DNA from: Planctomycetota bacterium
Lineage (GTDB): Bacteria; Planctomycetota; SZUA-567; H5-PLA8
Direction: 5' to 3'
Length of the DNA: 53,397 bases
Assembly (NCBI GenBank): GCA_038227875.1
Contig: JBBRPR010000057.1
Span: 1-53,397 of the forward strand
In this document: in pieces, positions 21,852-34,767 of the stretch
Numbering within the stretch: the stretch's first letter is position 1
Layout of the letters: every line of letters begins with the position of its first letter
The notes under the pieces: model-generated
The model's input: only the letters and a program-made list of their open reading frames with translations
The model's database searches: none
Told to the model about the DNA's origin: nothing
Translations under genes and position numbers: made by a program

Positions 21852-24689
21852 ATGACCCAGGCACTTCATCCCAAGACGCACGCTCATTCGCACGCCGGAC
21901 GCGACCGGCTCTCGGGCATTATCCACCGGCTCGGCGACACGCTCGGCCACGTAATCCAGGAGCAATCCGGCGCGCAGATTCTCTCGCTCGAAGAACGCGT
22001 CCGCCTGCTCTCCAAGGAACTCCGCGCCAGCAGCAAGCCGGAACTCTTCGCGGAAATGAAGTCGATCATGCAAGGCCTGTCGATCGAGCAGTCCGCCGGG
22101 CTGATCAAGTCGTTCAGCATGTTCTTTTCGCTCGTGAATCTCTCCGAGCAGCTTCAGCGCATCTGGGTGCTGCGCGACCGCGCGCTGGCCAAGCCCAACG
22201 ATCCACGTTCCGAATCGATCGCTTCGGCGATTTCCGAACTCAAAGCGCAGGGCGTCTCCGCCGCCGATCTCGAACGCTGGCTTGCCGACGCCGAAATTCT
22301 GCCGGTCTTCACCGCACACCCGACGGAAGCCCGCCGGCGCACGGTTCTCGATAAACTCCGCCGCCTCGCCGATGTGCTCGACACCGCGCACACCGGCGGA
22401 GGCCTGGCGTCCTCCAGTGCGCTGCCCAGCGCATCGGGCGCGGATTCCGTGGTGCGCGAGGAGATTACGGCGCTCTGGCAGAGCGACGATATCCGCATCG
22501 TCCGGCCGTCGGTGATCGACGAAGTGAAAAACGGCATCTACTATTTCAACCAGAGCATCTTCGAACTGGTTCCCGCGATCTATGAAGATCTGGAAGCCGC
22601 GCTCAGCGCGCACTATCCCGAACATGCGTGGGATGTGCCGTCGCTCTTGCGCTTCGGATCGTGGATGGGCGGCGACCGCGACGGCAATCCCAATGTCACG
22701 CCGCAGGTCACCGCCGAATCCGTGCGGTTGCTCTCTCAGGCCATCCGCCGCCGCTACTTTCACACCGTCGAAGACATCAGCCGCCGGTTGAGCATGTCGT
22801 CGCACCAGGTCGGCGCGTCGGACGAGTTGGTTACGTTTCTGCAAACCTACGGCGAACTTTTTCCGGAAGTCGCGCACCGCACGCTCGCGCGTTACCCGCG
22901 CGAACCCTACCGGCAGGCCTGCGCGTTCATCCGCGAAAAACTGCTCCGCTCCGTGGCACTCGCCGAGGACGCGCGCCAACTGGATTGGGACGGAACGCCG
23001 CTGCGCTCGCAGACGGCCTACATGCGCAGCTCCGAATTGCTCGCCGATCTGCGCATGCTCCAGAACAGTCTGCGCGCCAATAAGGGCAGCGCCGTTGCGG
23101 CCGGCGCGCTCAAGCGCTTCATCCGCCAGGTCGATGTCTTCGGGCTTCATCTGGCCACGCTCGACTGCCGCCAGCACAGCGACCGTCACCAGAACGCGCT
23201 GGCCGAAGTGCTCGAACGCGCCGGCGTCTGCAAAGACTTCGCGAGCTTATCCGAAGCGCAGCGCGTCGAGTTGCTCTCGGCGGAACTCACCAACCGCCGC
23301 CCGCTGATCCCCGCACGCTTGAGCTACACGCCGGAGACGGTCGAGACGATCGAAACGTTCCGGACCATCGCCGCGATTCTCGATCAACTCGCGCCGGAAT
23401 CGATTGACACGTACATCATCAGCATGACGCGCGGCGCCAGCGATATCCTCACGGCGCTGCTCTTCGCGCGTGAAGCCGGGCTCTTCCAGCCGGCGGCGGG
23501 AATCAGCCGCTTGAACATCGCGCCGCTCTTTGAAACCGGCGCGGACCTCGCCGGCGGCGCGGCGATTCTCGAAGCGTGCTTGAACGTTCCCGTCTACCGT
23601 GAGCACCTGAAGCTGCGCGGCAACGTCCAGGAAATCATGATCGGCTACTCCGACAGCAACAAGGACGTCGGGTTCCTCGCCGCGAACTGGGCGCTGTACA
23701 AGGCGCAGGCCGCGCTGCGCAACGTCGCGACGAAAGAACAGATCCGCCTGCGCCTGTTCCACGGCCGCGGCGGCGCAATCGGGCGCGGCGGTGGGCCGGC
23801 CAACAAGGCCATTCTCGCGCAGCCGCCGGGCAGCGTCGGCAACCAGATCAAGCTCACCGAACAGGGCGAAGTGATCGCCGACCGCTACGGTCTGCCCAAG
23901 ATCGCGCACCGGCATCTCGAGCAGGTGCTCCACGCCGTGCTGCTGGCCGGCCTGGAAAAGCGTCCCGACGCGCCGGAACAATGGGTCGGCGCGCTGGACA
24001 CGCTGGCTGAAAGTTCGCGCGGATACTACCGCAAGCTGGTCTACGAAAATCCGCATTTCATGGAGTACTTCCGCGCCGCGACGCCGATCAATGAAATCAG
24101 CCGCCTGAAAATCGGCAGCCGTCCGACGTCGCGCAAAAAGACCGACCGCATCGAAGACCTCCGCGCAATCCCGTGGGTCTTTTCGTGGATGCAGTCGCGC
24201 CACACGCTCCCCGGCTGGTACGGCCTGGGCTTCGCGCTCGAAGCCTTCGCCGGCGAAAATGGCGCTGCCAACGCGGAGCTGGAACTGCTGCAGGACATGT
24301 ACGCGCGCTGGCCGTTCTTCCGCACGCTGCTGGACAACGCGCAGATGATCCTGAGCAAAGCCGACATGCACATCGCCGAACGCTACGCCGAGCTCGTCGG
24401 CAACGCCGCCGCCTCGCGCGCTGTATTTTCGGAGATCCAGAACGAGTACCAGCGCAGCGCGCGCATGATCTGCCGCATCGCCAAAGTTGAGCGGTTACTC
24501 GACGACAGCCCTGTGTTGCAGCACTCCATCGACCGCCGCAACCCGTATGTGGACCCGCTGAGCTTCATTCAAATCGAGCTACTGCGCCGTCTGCGCAGCG
24601 ACCCGACGTGCAAAGACGCCGCGACGCTCGAAGAGCAGATTCTGCTCACGATCAGCGGAATCGCCGCGGGGCTGAAGAACACGGGTTGA
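21852..24689 (+). CDS. ppc: Phosphoenolpyruvate carboxylase
   Basis: VFTAHPTE, SWMGGDRDGNP, QEIMIGYSDSNKD, FHGRGG, LRAIPWVFSW, C-terminal LKNTG. Confidence 0.98.
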   Translation: MTQALHPKTHAHSHAGRDRLSGIIHRLGDTLGHVIQEQSGAQILSLEERVRLLSKELRASSKPELFAEMKSIMQGLSIEQSAGLIKSFSMFFSLVNLSEQLQRIWVLRDRALAKPNDPRSESIASAISELKAQGVSAADLERWLADAEILPVFTAHPTEARRRTVLDKLRRLADVLDTAHTGGGLASSSALPSASGADSVVREEITALWQSDDIRIVRPSVIDEVKNGIYYFNQSIFELVPAIYEDLEAALSAHYPEHAWDVPSLLRFGSWMGGDRDGNPNVTPQVTAESVRLLSQAIRRRYFHTVEDISRRLSMSSHQVGASDELVTFLQTYGELFPEVAHRTLARYPREPYRQACAFIREKLLRSVALAEDARQLDWDGTPLRSQTAYMRSSELLADLRMLQNSLRANKGSAVAAGALKRFIRQVDVFGLHLATLDCRQHSDRHQNALAEVLERAGVCKDFASLSEAQRVELLSAELTNRRPLIPARLSYTPETVETIETFRTIAAILDQLAPESIDTYIISMTRGASDILTALLFAREAGLFQPAAGISRLNIAPLFETGADLAGGAAILEACLNVPVYREHLKLRGNVQEIMIGYSDSNKDVGFLAANWALYKAQAALRNVATKEQIRLRLFHGRGGAIGRGGGPANKAILAQPPGSVGNQIKLTEQGEVIADRYGLPKIAHRHLEQVLHAVLLAGLEKRPDAPEQWVGALDTLAESSRGYYRKLVYENPHFMEYFRAATPINEISRLKIGSRPTSRKKTDRIEDLRAIPWVFSWMQSRHTLPGWYGLGFALEAFAGENGAANAELELLQDMYARWPFFRTLLDNAQMILSKADMHIAERYAELVGNAAASRAVFSEIQNEYQRSARMICRIAKVERLLDDSPVLQHSIDRRNPYVDPLSFIQIELLRRLRSDPTCKDAATLEEQILLTISGIAAGLKNTG

Positions 24690-24709
24690 CGGCAATCCAC
24701 TGCCTACCT

Positions 24710-24735
24710 ACCCCGTCGCGAATTCGCGACGGGGT
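24710..24735. repeat. Perfect 26-bp palindrome
   Basis: ACCCCGTCGCGAATTCGCGACGGGGT. Confidence 0.9.
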
Positions 24736-24835
24736 TAGAAACCACCAGTTAGCGAAAAGTAATCGACTTCGGACGGTAACAGTCCAGCGCCTGCATTTTT
24801 GAATTTTTAATTTTTGATTCCCCGCCGCGCGCACA

Positions 24836-24864
24836 TTGACAACGAATATTCCGCGGGGTTAATT
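24836..24864 (+). promoter_or_regulatory. Putative sigma-70 promoter for the uORF-tuf leader
   Basis: Perfect -35 TTGACA (24836-24841); AT-rich but non-consensus -10 (TTAATT) 17 nt downstream. Confidence 0.45.
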
Positions 24865-24902
24865 ACCTATCTAAGTAGGCATTCGTTTTTCGGAGCACCA
24901 CC

Positions 24903-25052
24903 ATGTTCGTCCGGCACGCAATCAATTGGGATTCGGTTTCCCGGGAGTTATCAGGGCAAGGCTCGACCTTGCCCGGTCGTGACTCCAGGGGATTGGGATC
25001 CACGACTCTTGCTGCCGGACCGGACACCGATCACGCACCTTCCGTGCGCTGA
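24903..25052 (+). CDS. Putative 49-aa leader peptide (uORF) MFVRHAINWDSVSRELSGQGSTLPGRDSRGLGSTTLAAGPDTDHAPSVR
   Basis: GGAG 8 nt before ATG 24903; TGA at 25050-25052; below the ORF-track length cut-off; followed 30 nt later by a terminator. Confidence 0.5.
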   Translation: MFVRHAINWDSVSRELSGQGSTLPGRDSRGLGSTTLAAGPDTDHAPSVR

Positions 25053-25080
25053 TTCCGCTTTCTCACCTGTCGTGAGTTGA

Positions 25081-25111
25081 AGCTCTCCGGTCCGCCGGAG
25101 AGTTTTTGTTT
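25081..25111 (+). terminator. Intrinsic terminator (attenuator) upstream of the EF-Tu paralog
   Basis: CTCTCCGG-TCCG-CCGGAGAG followed by TTTTTGTTT. Confidence 0.8.
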
Positions 25112-25161
25112 CGCCACGTGCTTTAAGACTCGCGAGGCGGACATCACGGCCAAAATGACAG

Positions 25162-25218
25162 ACCTTGTTGACCATGGTCAACAAGGTGTCCAACTTCCGG
25201 GCCACGTGGCCCGGAAGT
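25162..25218. repeat. Two tandem perfect 26-bp palindromes
   Basis: ACCTTGTTGACCATGGTCAACAAGGT (25162-25187) and ACTTCCGGGCCACGTGGCCCGGAAGT (25193-25218). Confidence 0.9.
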
Positions 25219-25302
25219 CGCCGCGCGGATCCTTCTCCCTCATTTCAAATCGAAACCATAGACGGCCGCGTGCGCACCACGCGCGCCGAAAGGAGAACTA
25301 TT

Positions 25303-26520
25303 GTGTCCACGCAACTGAACACCGTTTCCAAGCCCATCGTCAACGTCGGCACGATCGGGCACATCGACCACGGCAAGTCCTCGCTGACCACGGCCATCGT
25401 CGCCACGCTCGCGCCGCTGGGGCTGGCCAGGCCGCGCACGTACCAGCAGATCACCGCCGGTGGCGTGAAGCGCGACAAGCAGAAGGTCGTCACGGTCATC
25501 GTCTCGCACACCGAGTACGAATCGCGTGCGCGCAGCTACGCGCACGTCGATTGCCCGGGCCACGCCGATTACGTCCGGAACATGATCGTTGGCGCGGCGC
25601 AGATGGACGGCGGGATCCTCGTCGTCGCGGCCGATGAAGGCCCGATGCCGCAGACTCGCGAACACCTGTTGCTGGCCAAGCAGGTCGGCGTCCCGGCGAT
25701 GGTCGTCTTCCTCAACCGCTGCGACAAAGTGGCGGAAGTGGAACTGATCGACCTGGTCGAATCGGAAGTTCGCGCGATGCTCACGCGCTACGGCTATGAC
25801 GGCGTGAACGCGCCGGTCATCCGCGGCAGCGCGAAGGCGGCGATCGAAAATCCGACCGACGCGGCGGCGACGAAGCCGATCTGGGCGCTGCTCGATGCGC
25901 TCGATCGTTACATCCCGCTGCCGAGCCGGCCGATCGACCGGCCGTTCCTGATGCCGATCGAAGGCGTCTACTCCATCGAAGGGCGCGGCACGGTCGTGAC
26001 CGGGTTGATCGAACGCGGCCGCATCGCGCTGGGGGAGAAGCTGGAGATCGTCGGTCTCTCGCAGGACGCCGTGAGCACGACCTGCACGGGGATCGAACGC
26101 TTCAAGCGGCCGCAGCCCAGCGCCGAAGCGGGCGCGAACGTCGGGTTGCTGCTGCGCGGAGTGACGCGCGATCAGGTCCGGCGCGGGCAGGTGATCGCCG
26201 CGCCGGGAAGCGTCCAGCCGCGCTCGCATTTCCGCGCGGAAGTGTACGTGCTGACGAAGGACGAAGGCGGCCGGCACACGGCGTTCACGCCGAACTTCAA
26301 GCCGCAGTTCTTCTTCCGCACCGCGGGCGTCACGGGTGAAGTGCTGTCCGTGACGAACGAGAACTCGGAAGGCGGCGCGGTGATGCCCGGCGATCGCGTC
26401 ACGATGGAAGTGCAGCTGGAAGCCGACAAGCCCGTCGCCCTGTCCCCCGAACTCCGCTTCGCGATCCGCGAAGGCGGATGCACGGTCGGGCAGGGGGTTG
26501 TGGTGGAGGTGTTGGCGTAA
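25303..26520 (+). CDS. tuf: Divergent elongation factor Tu paralog
   Basis: [80 protein letters not shown] before GTG 25303; 405 aa. Confidence 0.93.
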
Positions 26521-26529
26521 GAGGAGTGA

Positions 26530-26564
26530 ACCCTCCCGCCCGCAAGGGCGGGAGGGTGTTTTTT
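26530..26564 (+). terminator. Intrinsic terminator of the tuf paralog
   Basis: ACCCTCCCGCCC-GCAA-GGGCGGGAGGGT followed by G and a T-tract. Confidence 0.9.
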
Positions 26565-27141
26565 ACCACGGCGAAAATGGATCAGAGTGCTTGGTCCAAA
26601 CAAAATCCCATAGCTCTCCCTTCGTTCTTAGTTCGCGTGCATCTGCGGGAAGTGGAATAACATTCAAGATCCTAATCTCGGTATTTTCAAAAGCGATCGT
26701 ATCCCAGCCATCCGCCACGAATCGTGGGTGTAAAATCAAACATTCCGCCTTTGGGAAAAGAGGAATTTCCCCAGGATTTCGAACTTTGTGCCACCAATCA
26801 AATGCGGTCTTGTGATCGAACGGATAGTTACTCAAATTCGCCAAGAAGGACGCAACGGACTTAATTTGAGGTATCGTGAGTTCGAGTCGAACAGCAAAAT
26901 GAAGTTCGCATCTATGATCGACACCTGACATTGCGCGATCACACATTCCCATGGTGCTGAATGAACACATTTCTACTTCTTCATCCGGCTTCCATACAAA
27001 CACGTCCACTCGATCAAGACCATCCGGCGCAATAGGTACGTTCGCATTTGATCGATCAAACTTTATCCCTTCGTCTGGTTCACCGAAGTTAGAAATGTGT
27101 TCATGATATACATGTCGAACAATTGCAGAGGGACCTGCCAT
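26563..27141 (-). CDS. Suppressor-of-fused (SUFU) domain protein, immunity-protein-like
   Basis: VDVFVWKP, FSTMGM, RCELHF, LANLSNYPF, ILNVIPL..RE; GAGGAG RBS before ATG 27141; visibly lower GC than its neighbours. Confidence 0.7.
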   Translation of the reverse strand: MAGPSAIVRHVYHEHISNFGEPDEGIKFDRSNANVPIAPDGLDRVDVFVWKPDEEVEMCSFSTMGMCDRAMSGVDHRCELHFAVRLELTIPQIKSVASFLANLSNYPFDHKTAFDWWHKVRNPGEIPLFPKAECLILHPRFVADGWDTIAFENTEIRILNVIPLPADARELRTKGELWDFVWTKHSDPFSPW

Positions 27142-27209
27142 TATCTTCTCCTCGATATCGGCGATTACGTATTCGCTCCACAAACATTGAATTCTGCATT
27201 CCTATCTGG

Positions 27210-27246
27210 TGTAGTCAATGCCGGGCGGCGAACCGCCTGGACTACA
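27210..27246. repeat. Compact or degenerate GTAG REP doublet
   Basis: TGTAGTC...CCGGGCGGCGAACCGCCTG GACTACA; same family as 21634-21835. Confidence 0.55.
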
Positions 27247-27294
27247 AAAGGCACGGCTTGCCGCTCAAGTCGAAAGTTCTTACACTCATCCAGT

Positions 27295-28002
27295 ATGGTT
27301 AAACGTCGAACGCTCCTCATTATTTCCATTTGTGTCGTGACGGGTTGCAACTCCAACCCTGGCGATTGCTCGTCCGACGCCATCCCGGTGGCGAAACAAC
27401 CGCCGCAGCTCGCTCCGCGCAGCACCGCGAAAGGAATCATGTTTGAACCCAAACCCATCTCCCCCGAACGCATCGCCGCCATCAAGACTGACCTTGAGTC
27501 CCGCCGGGAACGCGAGCAAGGCGTGCGCAACGAGATTACGGAACTGCTCCGGACGGGAACGCCGATAGCGAGCTTAAATGCAGCCACGTCGCCGGTCGTC
27601 AAACGGATGATCGAGATCGATAAAGAGAATGTCGCGGCGCTGAAAGGGATCCTCGCCGAATGCGGCTGGATCGACGCGACGCGCTTCGGAGCACGCGTGG
27701 CGCAGGCCGCGTTTCTCATCGTTCAGCACAGCAACGACGATGAACTTATGGGCGGCGCGCTACCGCACATTGAAGCGGACGCGAAGGCCAAGCGGATCAA
27801 CGGCGATCAGTACGCGCTGCTCTACGACCGGCTGACGCTCAGCCGCGGCGGCCTGCAGCGGTACGGCTCGCAGCTCAGCACGCGGGACAACGGCGAGATG
27901 TTCGCCGACAAGCTCGAAGATCCGGAGCACGTCGACGAGCGGCGGAAGGAATTGGGGATGCAGCCGTTGGCCAGTTACATCGGTGGGTTTGGAAAGCGGT
28001 AG
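27295..28002 (+). CDS. Lipoprotein with DUF6624-like domain
   Basis: Lipobox VVTG-C; IDKENVAALKGILAECGW, AAFLIVQHS, YALLYDRL, QRYGSQ, VDERRKELGMQPL. Confidence 0.75.
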   Translation: MVKRRTLLIISICVVTGCNSNPGDCSSDAIPVAKQPPQLAPRSTAKGIMFEPKPISPERIAAIKTDLESRREREQGVRNEITELLRTGTPIASLNAATSPVVKRMIEIDKENVAALKGILAECGWIDATRFGARVAQAAFLIVQHSNDDELMGGALPHIEADAKAKRINGDQYALLYDRLTLSRGGLQRYGSQLSTRDNGEMFADKLEDPEHVDERRKELGMQPLASYIGGFGKR

Positions 28003-31326: not shown

Positions 31327-34300
31327 TCAAAAGTCGCCGCTTTTTTCCGGGCTGCTTTCTTTGAGCGGCCAGGTGAGCGGCGCGGGATGGGCGAGCTTCG
31401 CTTTAAGCTCCTGCGCGCGCACGGCGGCGTTGAGGCGCAGCACCGCGTCGCGGCAGGCGGCGGCGCGGGTTTCATCGAGCAGTACGGCTTGCTTGCCGAA
31501 GAAGGCGAGGACCTCGCCGAGCTTATTCTTTTCACGCGCGATTCGTTCGAGCGCCACGATGGCCATGCGGCACTGGAGCGTCACGGAGTCGCCGGGCTTT
31601 CCCGCGTTCTGCTGCGGCGCGTTGACGAGGTTCATCAATACCGGCAGGCTGTCTTCGGACTGCTCCACGCAGGCCTGGACGGCGGCCTGACGCGTCTCGA
31701 CATCCGGGTCGGAAATGGCGCGCCCGACGACGGCGGGGTCCTTCGCGTCGATTTTCGCCGCGGCTGGAACGTTGGCGTAGAGATCCAACTGCAGCACCGC
31801 GCTGCCTTCCTTGGGTGAGATCGCCAGCTGATTTTCGTTGAAATTCCAGCTGACGGCGTGCGGTTTTTCCACCAGCCGCGGGTCGAGTTGGCACTGCCAG
31901 ACCAGCAGGCCGGAGCGGACGTCCCAGATGGAAATTTTGCCCGCATCCAACTGTGCCAATTGCGTGCGGCTGCGGCTGAACAGTTTCGTTCCCGTCGCGC
32001 CGAACTTGCGGATCACCTTGCCGGATTGGACATCGACCACGGCATCGTTGCCGGCGAGCAATTTTCCATCCAGGGTAAAGCGGGAGTTGATGCCGGGAAA
32101 ATCCATGTCGCGGATGAACGTGCCATCGCTGGCGCTGACCAGCGCCGACGTGGCGGAAGTGCCCGGGAACTCCGATTCGTACACGTACAACTGATCGCCA
32201 GCAGGATTCAAGTCCAACTCCTGAACGCTTTGGAGCGGATTTTTCGCGTGATTTTGAAACCAGAAGAGGCGCTTGCCCGTGGCCGGATCAAAAGCACCGG
32301 AGAGCCCGATCGGCGCCGCCTTGGGCTTGCCTGGCTCCGGAAGGCCGCCAAAGCGTTGCGAAAAATCGGCGAGGAAAGCTTTCGTTCCATCCGCCGTCCA
32401 AATGCAACGCGTCACATCCTGAGTCGGGCCGCTTGACGAAAGCGTGGGACCATGCAAGTCGCTTTGCGGTGTGCCGTGGCTCAGATCGAAAAAGCGCACG
32501 GTGCCATTGTATTCGTAACCCAGGAGCGCCCAGCGGTCGTCGTTGGATATCTGGATGAAACTTACCGCATTGCCATTCTGGCCCAGATGCCCGAGCAGTT
32601 TTCCGGTGTACGAATCCCACACTTCCGCCTTTCCATTTTCGGAACCGTGAGCAACGAGCATGCGCCCGTCGCTGAGGAGAAAATTCGCGCCGTAGGCATA
32701 CATCTCGGAGGAAAATTGCTGTGTCCGCTTGCCGGATTCATCGTACGCATAGGTCAGCGCGCCGTCGTACAAAAGCAGCCGTCCGTCGGGAGAATAATCC
32801 ATGCAGTAGGGCGGATTAACGTGAGCATCAGCGCCAGGCGCGAGCCGGCGTTCATTCTTCAAATCCATCAGGAGAAAGCTGGCACCGTTGCTGACAACGG
32901 CAAAGTACGTTCCCTGGGGACTACAGACCGCCTCATTTGCGAATTTGATTCCTGGTGCAGGAAGTGATGACAGCTCATGGCCGTCCTGCGCGGAGAATGT
33001 GCGAATGATTCCGTTTGCAAACGTCGTGACGGCCGCGCCGTCGGGGCTCAGCGAGCCGCACCCGGGAAAGCTGCGCACTTCCGTGCCGTCGGCCGCGCTC
33101 AGAATCCGCGCGGAAGATTTGCCCCACTCACCCATGCCGGAGACAAAAAGATGTTCGCCATCCGGCATCCATGCCAGGCCTTGCACATACGACGCCACCT
33201 TGGTCCATTCGTGCAGCAGCTTTTTTGTTTTCCAATCCCAGATCGAGAAACGTGGCGTGTTTTGATCTTTTTGTACATTCGTTCCGCTCCATCCATTTGC
33301 AATATCCACGCATGCCACACGCGATCCATCCGCGCTCACGCTGATGCACTGCAGACCATAATGGGTATGTTGATCCGTGCGCGAAACAGCGTCGAGGCCA
33401 TCAATGGCCAGGCCGGTATTCAAATCCACAGCCTTCAGCATGCCGCCGTTGGGCGTGCCACCCGGTGCCAGCGCAATCTGCTCGTCGGGAAACAGGGTCA
33501 TGAACCGGCCGCTCACGAATTTATTGAAAGGAAATTCCTTCTTCGACGGTGGAACCGGTAGTGCGCGCGGTTTCAATTCCCTGCGCCAATCCCATTTCAT
33601 AAACGAACACGATTCGAAACTCATATCGCCGCTGGGGAGAATCAGCAGCGTATCGTCCTTCAAAAAGCGAACGTCCCAGACTCCGTTCTGCAGCGTCGTG
33701 CGGACCCGTTCAGTGGCGGTGGCGATCTCCCAGATGGAGACGTATTTGTCGCCGGCCGACGCGATAAACTTTTCGTCGGCAGAGAAAGCGACGTGTTGCA
33801 CGTAGCCCGCCGGCTGAAACACCGCACCACCCAGCACGCGAACAAATCCGGGAATGGCAGCCGGCGACGTCTGCTCGTTGCCGGCAGTTTCCACGGGCTT
33901 CGCGCCGGGCTTCCGGGTTGCGTACGAGCGGTAGAACAGTCCGCCAAAGGTCCCGATCAACAGCACGCATGCCGTCAGCGCGGCCACGGCCTTCAGCTGC
34001 TTCACCGCCAGCATTTTCAGCGCGCCGTGAAACAGCTGCAGCGTGTGCGGCGAGACCACCTGCGCCGCCGCAGCCTCGCCAGCTTTTCCCAGCAGCGCCG
34101 CTTTGGCGGTCGCCGCCAGCAACGTTGCCGGCGCCGGTCCAGCCAGGGTCTGGCGCAGAGCTTCCTGCAGCAGGACCACGCTGCTGAACGCCACGCCGCG
34201 CTGCGCCAGCCGTGTGCGCAGCAGTTCGCGCGCGCGGTTCAAGCGCGCGGAAAATGTGCCGAGCTTCAGGCCCATCAGGCGCGCGCCTTCTTCTTCCGAT

Positions 34301-34767
34301 CGTCCTTCCAGATGATGGAGCACGAGCGGCTGCAGGTATTGCAGCGGCAGCGCGTTCAGCGCGTCGTCGAGCAGCGCTTTCAGCGCATCCTGCGACGGAA
34401 GATTGGGCGTGGTGCTTTCTTTCATGCGAGCGGCCTCCACTTCAAGACGGGCGCGAGCCCGGGAAGCGGAGCGAGCGCGCGTAGCCACATGCCACGCGAC
34501 CTGGTAAAGCCATGTGGAGACGGTGGCGCGCTGTTGCAGCGTGCCGGCTTTGCGCGCGAGCGTCAAAAAGACCGCCTGCGTCGCGTCCTCCGCCTCCTGC
34601 CGGTCGGCGAGAATGCGATTGCAGACGTTGAAGACCAGCGCCGCATGCCGCTGCAGCAGTTCTTCAAACGCCGCTTGATCGTTGGCCGCGTGAAAAGCAC
34701 GCAGCAGCTCGCCGTCGTTGCGTATCATGGCTTGCACAGTCTCCAGGACTCGTTCCGCTGCGTTCAT
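31327..34767 (-). CDS. ECF sigma factor fused to a TM helix, WD40 propellers and a C-terminal HEAT-like region
   Basis: DQAAFEELLQRH..AEDATQAVFLTLARKA..WLYQVA (region 2), LPLQYLQPLVLHHLEG..GTFSARLNRARELLR (region 4), TM ALTACVLLIGTFGGLF, many WD blades; alternative start 34728. Confidence 0.9.
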   Translation of the reverse strand: MNAAERVLETVQAMIRNDGELLRAFHAANDQAAFEELLQRHAALVFNVCNRILADRQEAEDATQAVFLTLARKAGTLQQRATVSTWLYQVAWHVATRARSASRARARLEVEAARMKESTTPNLPSQDALKALLDDALNALPLQYLQPLVLHHLEGRSEEEGARLMGLKLGTFSARLNRARELLRTRLAQRGVAFSSVVLLQEALRQTLAGPAPATLLAATAKAALLGKAGEAAAAQVVSPHTLQLFHGALKMLAVKQLKAVAALTACVLLIGTFGGLFYRSYATRKPGAKPVETAGNEQTSPAAIPGFVRVLGGAVFQPAGYVQHVAFSADEKFIASAGDKYVSIWEIATATERVRTTLQNGVWDVRFLKDDTLLILPSGDMSFESCSFMKWDWRRELKPRALPVPPSKKEFPFNKFVSGRFMTLFPDEQIALAPGGTPNGGMLKAVDLNTGLAIDGLDAVSRTDQHTHYGLQCISVSADGSRVACVDIANGWSGTNVQKDQNTPRFSIWDWKTKKLLHEWTKVASYVQGLAWMPDGEHLFVSGMGEWGKSSARILSAADGTEVRSFPGCGSLSPDGAAVTTFANGIIRTFSAQDGHELSSLPAPGIKFANEAVCSPQGTYFAVVSNGASFLLMDLKNERRLAPGADAHVNPPYCMDYSPDGRLLLYDGALTYAYDESGKRTQQFSSEMYAYGANFLLSDGRMLVAHGSENGKAEVWDSYTGKLLGHLGQNGNAVSFIQISNDDRWALLGYEYNGTVRFFDLSHGTPQSDLHGPTLSSSGPTQDVTRCIWTADGTKAFLADFSQRFGGLPEPGKPKAAPIGLSGAFDPATGKRLFWFQNHAKNPLQSVQELDLNPAGDQLYVYESEFPGTSATSALVSASDGTFIRDMDFPGINSRFTLDGKLLAGNDAVVDVQSGKVIRKFGATGTKLFSRSRTQLAQLDAGKISIWDVRSGLLVWQCQLDPRLVEKPHAVSWNFNENQLAISPKEGSAVLQLDLYANVPAAAKIDAKDPAVVGRAISDPDVETRQAAVQACVEQSEDSLPVLMNLVNAPQQNAGKPGDSVTLQCRMAIVALERIAREKNKLGEVLAFFGKQAVLLDETRAAACRDAVLRLNAAVRAQELKAKLAHPAPLTWPLKESSPEKSGDF

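Follow-up and report, generated by a model that had tools for sequence, protein, structure and literature searches.

Locus, gene and genome

This analysis concerns a gene for elongation factor Tu (EF-Tu) in a 53,397-nt stretch of DNA, hereafter the window, from a planctomycete genome (assembly GCA_038227875.1, contig JBBRPR010000057.1; contig C57 of genome G000 in our numbering). An uninterrupted open reading frame (ORF) that starts with GTG encodes the protein, a paralog of EF-Tu designated P0001. The Pfam domains GTP_EFTU, D2 and D3 (PF00009, PF03144 and PF03143) all score above their cut-offs and span residues 10-403. The best PDB sequence match runs end to end (E 1.8e-142), and identity to solved EF-Tu structures is about 55%. 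The protein stops at the end of domain 3 and carries no SelB-type C-terminal extension. Upstream lie genes for PFK and phosphoenolpyruvate carboxylase (ppc), and downstream a SUFU-like ORF on the other strand. The gene thus sits between ppc and the SUFU-like ORF rather than in a housekeeping context (the str operon or tRNA-tuf-secE-nusG-rplKAJL), and a tRNA search of the 53-kb window found no tRNA gene. The 613-bp spacer between ppc and the paralog holds, in this order, a promoter-like site, a GGAG sequence, a short upstream ORF and hairpins (Table 1).

Table 1. Features of the EF-Tu paralog gene and its leader in the window
Feature	Position	Strand	Basis
Promoter-like site: TTGACA (24836-24841), 17-nt spacer, TTAATT (24859-24864)	24836..24864	+	inferred from sequence
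Shine-Dalgarno-like GGAG, 7 nt before the upstream ORF start	24892..24895	+	sequence, comparison
Upstream ORF P0240, ATG start, 49 codons; GQGSTLPGRD at codons 18-27	24903..25052	+	homologous ORFs in L040 and G009
Leader core: CCGGGAG, hairpin GGGCAAGG (24954-24961)/CCTTGCCC (24967-24974), then GGTCGTGAC	24941..24983	+	inverted-repeat search, alignment
Terminator-like hairpin (stem of 12 pairs, UCCG loop) leading into UUUUUGUUU, between upstream ORF and gene	25079..25111	+	folding, inverted-repeat search
Two perfect 26-nt palindromes (25162-25187, 25193-25218) of a genome-wide class	25162..25218	.	palindrome count
Shine-Dalgarno AAGGAG of the EF-Tu paralog, seven bases before GTG	25290..25295	+	read from sequence
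EF-Tu paralog P0001, 405 aa	25303..26520	+	ORF, Pfam, NCBIfam, PDB and alignment evidence
Intrinsic-terminator-like hairpin (12-pair, G+C-rich) and T-run (26530-26557) closing the monocistronic unit	26530..26565	+	terminator scan

The genome (9.3 Mb in 176 contigs, 88% complete) also contains a canonical tuf at C15:91431-92621, which is 59% identical to the window paralog. It lies between genes for tRNA-Thr and tRNA-Trp, followed by secE, nusG, rplK, rplA, rplJ and rplL. The tuf on contig C15 is the housekeeping gene, and the window gene is a second, non-housekeeping copy. A preliminary description of this DNA had called the gene a stand-alone, divergent EF-Tu with intact catalytic residues, a claim to be abandoned if it proved to be the only or housekeeping tuf of the lineage. 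The lone locus and its 59% identity to the C15 gene bear the description out, and the canonical tuf operon elsewhere in the same genome disposes of that objection.

The window contig is native to the genome and not a contaminant, as judged from its tetranucleotide profile and from the relationships of its MurJ. Among the 97 contigs of 20 kb or more, the tetranucleotide correlation of C57 with C15 was 0.991, against a median of 0.992 between C15 and the other contigs. The single-copy MurJ encoded on C57 ranks the genomes of the family broadly as housekeeping EF-Tu does, with identities of 56-60% to G014, G003 and G002, 53-55% to genus g8, and 47-50% to G004-G009 and G001. Synteny traced through ppc gave a partial match in only one of five relatives, at 46% identity.

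The paralog is under purifying selection and uses the preferred codons of the genome. Its dN/dS against a close relative on a metagenome contig (L040) is 0.19, within the range of six housekeeping pairs of the family (0.08-0.24), with dS compressed by codon bias in this comparison. Its effective number of codons (ENC) is 31 and its codon adaptation index (CAI) 0.75, compared with 34 and 0.78 for the housekeeping tuf, which was itself part of the CAI reference set.

A conserved leader upstream of the paralog

The leader was compared at three loci, namely the window, L040 and a different divergent paralog in a genome of the same family (G009). Upstream ORFs of 44 codons in L040 and 36 codons in G009 precede these paralogs in the same layout as in the window. 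Each is led by a Shine-Dalgarno sequence (GAGGAG in L040 and AAGGAGG in G009, the counterparts of GGAG), and all three predicted peptides start with MF and contain GQGxTLPGRD. A conserved short upstream ORF with a ribosome-binding site, as expected of an attenuator, is therefore present at all three loci. In addition, TTGAC[AG] followed by an A+T-rich hexamer could be aligned and is conserved in all three leaders. In the 30-nt block encoding the peptide motif, 27 positions are the same at all three loci, while the coding regions of the paralogs differ at about 45% of synonymous sites. The core hairpin GGGCAAGG/CCTTGCCC lies within the upstream ORF.

The association of this leader with the paralogs is exclusive in the genomes searched. 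G000 and G009 each contain a single copy of the block, which immediately precedes the paralog on the same strand, and the other 60 of the 62 genomes of the class have none with up to 3 mismatches allowed. The leader peptide is absent from the other 399 of 401 sampled genomes of the phylum, and reversed-pattern controls gave 0 matches. When 185,579 species genomes were searched for the block, only the contig of G009 matched. Within the 9.3-Mb G000, GQGxTLPGRD is unique in six frames. The three loci share no neighbouring genes. Conservation together with this exclusive association shows, on comparative grounds, a functional link between leader and gene. We infer further that the leader probably regulates expression and that it may do so by attenuation.

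Two genes near the comparison loci may be recorded here. A gene of the EryCIII/UDP-glycosyltransferase family (L040 5429-6706, -) is divergent from the paralog leader in L040, and in G009 the paralog is followed, after about 0.7 kb and on the same strand, by a gene for aspartyl-tRNA synthetase (L041 11791-13674, +).

Several other readings of leader elements were discarded. A permissive Rfam scan of 24500-25500 returned 0 matches at E up to 1. The idea that the core hairpin loop mimics a tRNA T-loop was dropped after a comparison by eye, as the position matching U55 varies (U, A or G). The two palindromes were rejected as operators because the genome holds 133 perfect palindromes of at least 24 nt, against about 0.6 expected, and because the leaders of L040 and G009 lack them. 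These 133 sequences span 24-38 nt, the expectation of about 0.6 being that for chance in 9.3 Mb, and another lies in the window at 24710-24735. Many have ACC...GGT ends and AATT, AAATTT, CAGCTG, CCATGG or CACGTG centres, and some form adjacent pairs, such as C1:174446-174471 and 174478-174505. They look like a class of the repetitive extragenic palindrome (REP) type.

Distribution and origin of the paralog clade

Protein relatives were sought in 5.8 billion clusters, from which 8000 candidates were scored and the best 120 listed. Among these 120, the window protein and six relatives of 80-87% identity form a clade of seven sequences, and the next genuine matches reach at most 63%. Two intermediate rows, P0010 (625 aa) and P0011 (519 aa), are internally duplicated or chimeric canonical EF-Tu, probably assembly artefacts, and were set aside. 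Apart from these, the nearest relatives among the matches listed are EF-Tu proteins of 391-406 aa, and every match with a named source is from a planctomycete. No further clade member was found among 16 genomes of the family, 19 of the order and 61 of the class, the last two counts including one unpublished genome (G019). A clade-specific DNA pattern matched one metagenome contig, L040, and no contig among the species-representative genomes. As far as these searches reach, the clade is a small, rare and planctomycete-only paralog lineage.

The NCBIfam model TIGR00485 has a cut-off of 522.4 bits, which the clade straddles, with 526.2 bits for the window protein and 512.9 for the member P0007. 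The G009 paralog scores 538.6, the housekeeping EF-Tu of the genome 635.4 and E. coli TufA 793. The G009 paralog is 60% identical to the window protein and 64% identical to its own housekeeping EF-Tu, and it keeps the canonical NKxD motif. As an observation apart, drug and pocket sites have changed more in this protein (L025; L041 9799-11019, G009:C98) than in the window protein: it carries Y160C and L120I, both at kirromycin-resistance positions, as well as N273S and a GLG that replaces GRG at 223.

In phylogenetic trees the window clade is fully supported and has a stem length of roughly 0.5 substitutions per site. Housekeeping EF-Tu of the family form a clade that excludes the paralogs (support 97/98). 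A carefully built tree contained 40 rows; 15 of 55 had been dropped beforehand as identical, partial or redundant (P0038, L011, L018, L023, L024, L033, L036, L037, L038, P0012, P0014, P0026, P0035, P0040 and P0076). Its deeper placement is a four-way polytomy. A single clade of the paralogs with the housekeeping EF-Tu of the family was not rejected (p-AU 0.34), and a clade of the paralogs with the housekeeping EF-Tu of families f1 and f2 was borderline (p-AU 0.048). The two paralog types are joined at 81/83 in the 40-row tree and are not joined in a tree with Gemmataceae-type sequences. The best evidence for one origin of both types is the leader that they share. Furthermore, two insertions in domain 3 occur in both types of paralog and otherwise only in housekeeping EF-Tu from families f1 and f2, which belong to the same order; this points to an origin inside the order.

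A wider and older "type 2" paralog family including Gemmataceae proteins with Y218, L223 and L230 was considered and rejected, given that L230 and K230 forms interleave and the window clade does not join them. The assignment of family f28 to the Gemmataceae was likewise rejected (about 57% identity). In a sample of 151 genomes of the phylum, nothing exceeded 65% identity to the Urbifossiella EF-Tu protein.

Residues shared with the phylum and residues specific to the clade

Residues are numbered after E. coli TufA (NC_000913), in which position 136 corresponds to residue 139 of the paralog. The seven clade members were compared with 16 housekeeping EF-Tu of the family and 29 other planctomycete EF-Tu. 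All the residue assignments of the preliminary description were reproduced against E. coli TufA (G1 GHIDHGKS, G4 NRCD, G5 SAK, D216G, M260R, R230L and R381C, with A375 kept). What the residues signify proved different in most cases. The G1 sequence and the lysine of G5 had been taken as oddities of the paralog, and both recur, as does the non-canonical switch I, in the family and in the housekeeping EF-Tu of the same genome, which shares Ser25, Lys175 and the switch I pattern T..GG..RD..K.VT replacing DNAPEEKARGIT. D216G is present in 14 of the 29 other planctomycete EF-Tu and does not mark the paralog, nor do R381C and M260R, which occur in three and five of the seven clade members, respectively.

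The change that truly marks the clade is that of the G4 motif from NKxD to NRxD. All seven members carry NRxD, the other 113 of the best 120 matches carry NKxD, and none of 116 Gemmataceae-type sequences has NRxD. The G1, G3 and G5 motifs of the clade fit the canonical patterns GxxxxGK[ST], DxxG(H) and SAx, and G4 is the one that departs. In the alignment, the clade is fixed for a different residue at 15 positions whose conservation in 46 housekeeping sequences is 80% or more; these include T26S, A29T, I62V, H75S, T93V, K136R, L156M, L265Q, G268A, P321A, Y326F, T335A and N355R. D336G is also found in all seven members. Catalytic and tRNA-contact sites are kept throughout the clade (G18-K24, T61, D80-H84, N135, D138, H66, E215, T228, N273, Q329, T338 and E378). 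In the aminoacyl pocket, D216G and F218Y occur in six of seven members, and position 260 is R or S.

For drug sites we used kirromycin, GE2270A and pulvomycin positions that we take to be the relevant resistance positions. The kirromycin positions L120, Q124, Y160, G316, Q329, A375 and E378 are wild type in all seven members (Y160 is F in one), as are the GE2270A positions V226, G257 and G275. R230L had been proposed as a pulvomycin-resistance substitution. However, 12 of the 29 other planctomycete EF-Tu have K at position 230, and the 116 Gemmataceae-type EF-Tu divide into 31 with L, 24 with V, 41 with K, 6 with R, 1 with M and 13 in which the residue is unread. Named Gemmata and Urbifossiella EF-Tu proteins carry L230, and in a tree L230 and K230 forms interleave within one orthologous Gemmataceae clade. 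Since the position is this variable, R230L is an ordinary polymorphism of the phylum.

Two further observations concern these motifs in other planctomycetes. In Gemmataceae-type EF-Tu (P0102 and P0125-P0239), residue 230 flips between K, L, V and R along with GRG or GLG at 223 and H or Y at 218; resistance databases use this residue, which varies naturally in these proteins. Moreover, the housekeeping EF-Tu L031, L032, L034 and L039 of families f6 and f7 in the class have a three-residue insertion in switch I (AKASESQGRRD), and switch I takes several different forms within the class.

Proposed mechanism and the evidence on both sides

The layout of the spacer is that of a leader-peptide attenuator. 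The preliminary description had suggested that the gene is inducible, and a dedicated, conserved leader with an upstream ORF, a hairpin and a terminator-like stem fits that suggestion and argues for conditional expression. We consider it about an even chance that the paralog is a working second EF-Tu made only under particular conditions and gated by the behaviour of ribosomes on the leader. The leader would be translated, as its Shine-Dalgarno sequence, ATG and conserved GQGxTLPGRD suggest. A ribosome pausing on it would re-fold the RNA, and the downstream terminator-like hairpin would not form. Slow elongation, as under starvation or with inhibitors of aminoacyl-tRNA delivery, would then lead to synthesis of the paralog. 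The clade-invariant change of Lys136 to Arg in the guanine pocket may give it nucleotide or inhibitor properties unlike those of the housekeeping factor, to which the changes L230, A335 and G336 at the three-domain junction may also contribute.

Folding of the window leader is consistent with such a switch. When the leader is free, or when a ribosome stands at the stop codon, the terminator forms. In a constrained minimum-energy fold with the upstream ORF masked as occupied, approximately 25005-25024 pairs with 25086-25102 and the terminator is replaced. In L040, a terminator scan also listed sites of the terminator type in the stretch from the upstream ORF to the paralog.

Several results nevertheless weigh against ribosome-gated expression. 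The comparison comprises only three loci, which represent two of the seven clade members and the G009 paralog. In G009 the scan gave no terminator-like site between the upstream ORF and the gene, and the alternative antiterminator pairing appears in the window only, being absent from the L040 and G009 folds. Simple scans did not list the terminator or the promoter of the window leader; the sigma-70 scan missed the promoter because its second hexamer lacks an A at position 2. The upstream ORF is rich in rare codons, as non-coding sequence would be, with a mean codon share of 0.30 against 0.53 in the gene, and no homologue of its peptide was found in the protein collection. Finally, CCGGGAG is conserved but differently framed in the window, so that some of the conservation lies at the RNA or DNA level and not in the peptide.

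A bolder version of conditional expression, which we hold to be rather unlikely, treats the locus as a one-gene stress module. The leader, through pausing or its nascent peptide, would read the supply of ternary complex and release an NRxD EF-Tu that sustains elongation when the housekeeping factor is starved or inhibited. Altered affinity for GDP, GTP or guanosine tetraphosphate (ppGpp), or independence from EF-Ts, would keep elongation running. If true, this would constitute a direct feedback from elongation rate to the elongation-factor isoform, which is unknown for EF-Tu.

Comparison with known systems

The paralog matches canonical EF-Tu (TufA/TufB; TIGR00485) in length, in its three domains and in its catalytic residues and tRNA contacts. 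It differs in the replaced G4 lysine, its own leader, its position outside a tuf operon and its score near the TIGR00485 cut-off. Leader-peptide attenuators of translation-related genes offer the closest regulatory parallel: whiB7 is described as governed by an upstream ORF, and the leader of tet(M) in Tn916 is a further attenuator of this kind on a translation-related resistance gene. To our knowledge, GQGxTLPGRD matches no known arrest motif. Like the leaders of erm, ABC-F, whiB7 and E. coli toiL (PMC12121999), the planctomycete leader has a short ORF led by a Shine-Dalgarno sequence, overlapping hairpins and a terminator-like hairpin before the gene, and in those systems the regulated gene likewise acts on translation. 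Unlike them, one of the three loci (G009) has no recognisable terminator, and stalling and antitermination are predictions here.

A survey by Atkinson (2015) describes one subfamily of bacterial EF-Tu paralogs, the actinobacterial actEFTu2/EF-Tu3 (PMC4342817). According to one report, tuf3 of S. coelicolor is a direct target of WblC/WhiB7 and is induced by translation inhibitors (PMC7157823), and another gives EF-Tu3 as kirromycin-resistant (PMC6804068). The preliminary description had drawn an analogy with Streptomyces EF-Tu3. The analogy holds as a likeness, both being divergent, non-operonic second EF-Tu genes beside a canonical one, with expression that is conditional for tuf3 and may be so for the paralog, but it does not extend to descent. 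The nearest relatives of the window clade are planctomycete EF-Tu, and the domain-3 insertions are specific to its own order, so an origin independent of EF-Tu3 is indicated; this was judged from best matches and insertions, as the trees contained no EF-Tu3 sequence. Moreover, the putative sensing leader sits directly on the planctomycete tuf gene with no transcription factor between, NRxD is invariant in the planctomycete clade, and its kirromycin positions are wild type, in contrast to the kirromycin resistance reported for EF-Tu3.

Alternative explanations

The alternative favoured by the preliminary description is that the gene encodes an EF-Tu resistant to elfamycins of the pulvomycin type, which sustains translation when the housekeeping factor is blocked. 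R230C, R333C and T334A are said to mark pulvomycin-resistance sites, reportedly from work by Zeef et al. in 1994, and all seven clade members have L230, A335 and G336 at or next to these positions. A translation-sensing leader would also suit an inducible resistance gene, and a review states that a spare resistant EF-Tu copy suffices only against drugs that block ternary-complex formation, which one resistant copy would overcome (PMC6685928). However, R333 and T334 themselves are unchanged, all kirromycin and GE2270A positions are wild type, and neither a biosynthetic cluster nor a conserved neighbour adjoins the gene at the three loci. In addition, L, V or K at 230 occurs in many apparently housekeeping planctomycete EF-Tu, so that L230 is not an adaptation of the paralog. 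Because this explanation leans on a residue that varies freely in the phylum, drug resistance is a minority possibility and unlikely to be the role of the gene.

Alternatively, the region of the upstream ORF might not be a regulator at all. It could be a separate small gene, a small RNA or a promoter-proximal element, with the paralog expressed constitutively and partly redundant. The poor codon usage of the upstream ORF, the conservation of CCGGGAG regardless of frame and the lack of a terminator in G009 would all agree with this. So would the good terminator in which the window leader ends, about 190 nt before the gene, with which an independent short transcript is conceivable. Set against these points, the element lies only before paralogs and on the same strand at three of three loci whose neighbours are otherwise unrelated, and a simple scan found no second promoter-like site between the leader and the gene. 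We consider a non-regulatory region improbable.

It is very unlikely that the paralog serves as a dedicated carrier of a single unusual aminoacyl-tRNA, along the lines of SelB or nematode mitochondrial EF-Tu2. Those proteins are also paralogs derived from EF-Tu, and the narrowed role is theirs. The pocket changes D216G and F218Y (six of seven members) and M260R or S would be compatible with such a role, as would the aspartyl-tRNA synthetase gene 0.7 kb downstream of the G009 paralog, but housekeeping EF-Tu of planctomycetes commonly combine D216G with H or Y at 218, and the residues contacting the T-stem are unchanged. Unlike SelB and EF-Tu2, the paralog has no C-terminal extension or other extra domain, keeps its contacts with the tRNA body, and is accompanied by no tRNA gene in the window, no recoding mRNA element and no conserved partner gene. 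Hardly credible, lastly, is a non-translational role, as a decoy against EF-Tu-targeting toxins or phage proteins or in other moonlighting; a SUFU-like ORF of atypical composition, from a family that includes immunity proteins of polymorphic toxin systems, does adjoin the gene, but the neighbourhood is not conserved in L040 or G009, and the protein, which is under purifying selection, keeps its complete set of catalytic and tRNA-binding features.

Neighbouring genes

The SUFU-family ORF (26563-27183, -) is of atypical composition, with a G+C content at third codon positions (GC3) of 0.43 and an ENC of 54, compared with approximately 0.8 and 31-37 in the larger neighbours compared. It is followed by a DUF6624 ORF (27097-28002, +) with a GC3 of 0.71, and the two ORF calls overlap by about 87 nt. 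The pair may be an acquired islet. Elsewhere in the window, a 1146-aa protein (31327-34767, -) joins regions 2 and 4 of an ECF sigma factor to WD40 beta-propeller repeats.

Significance

Divergent second EF-Tu genes have been documented mainly in actinomycetes, and their purpose is debated; the planctomycete case is independent. The paralog is a real, rare and functional-looking EF-Tu, with a G-motif change that is invariant across its clade. The conserved leader of this EF-Tu paralog is newly noticed here, and the gene with it is, to judge from its predicted signals, a self-contained cassette running from its own promoter-like site to a terminator. Two features are open to experiment, namely a natural, clade-invariant replacement of the Lys of NKxD by Arg in an otherwise intact translational GTPase, and the conserved upstream ORF leader directly on the gene.

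The comparison also shows that textbook EF-Tu motifs, including switch I, residue 230 and D216, are naturally variable in Planctomycetota. As such motifs vary across the phylum, caution is warranted with resistance calls based on single positions in E. coli numbering. If the leader does sense elongation, the locus would offer a compact system for studying how bacteria gauge the delivery of aminoacyl-tRNA and what use they make of an alternative EF-Tu.

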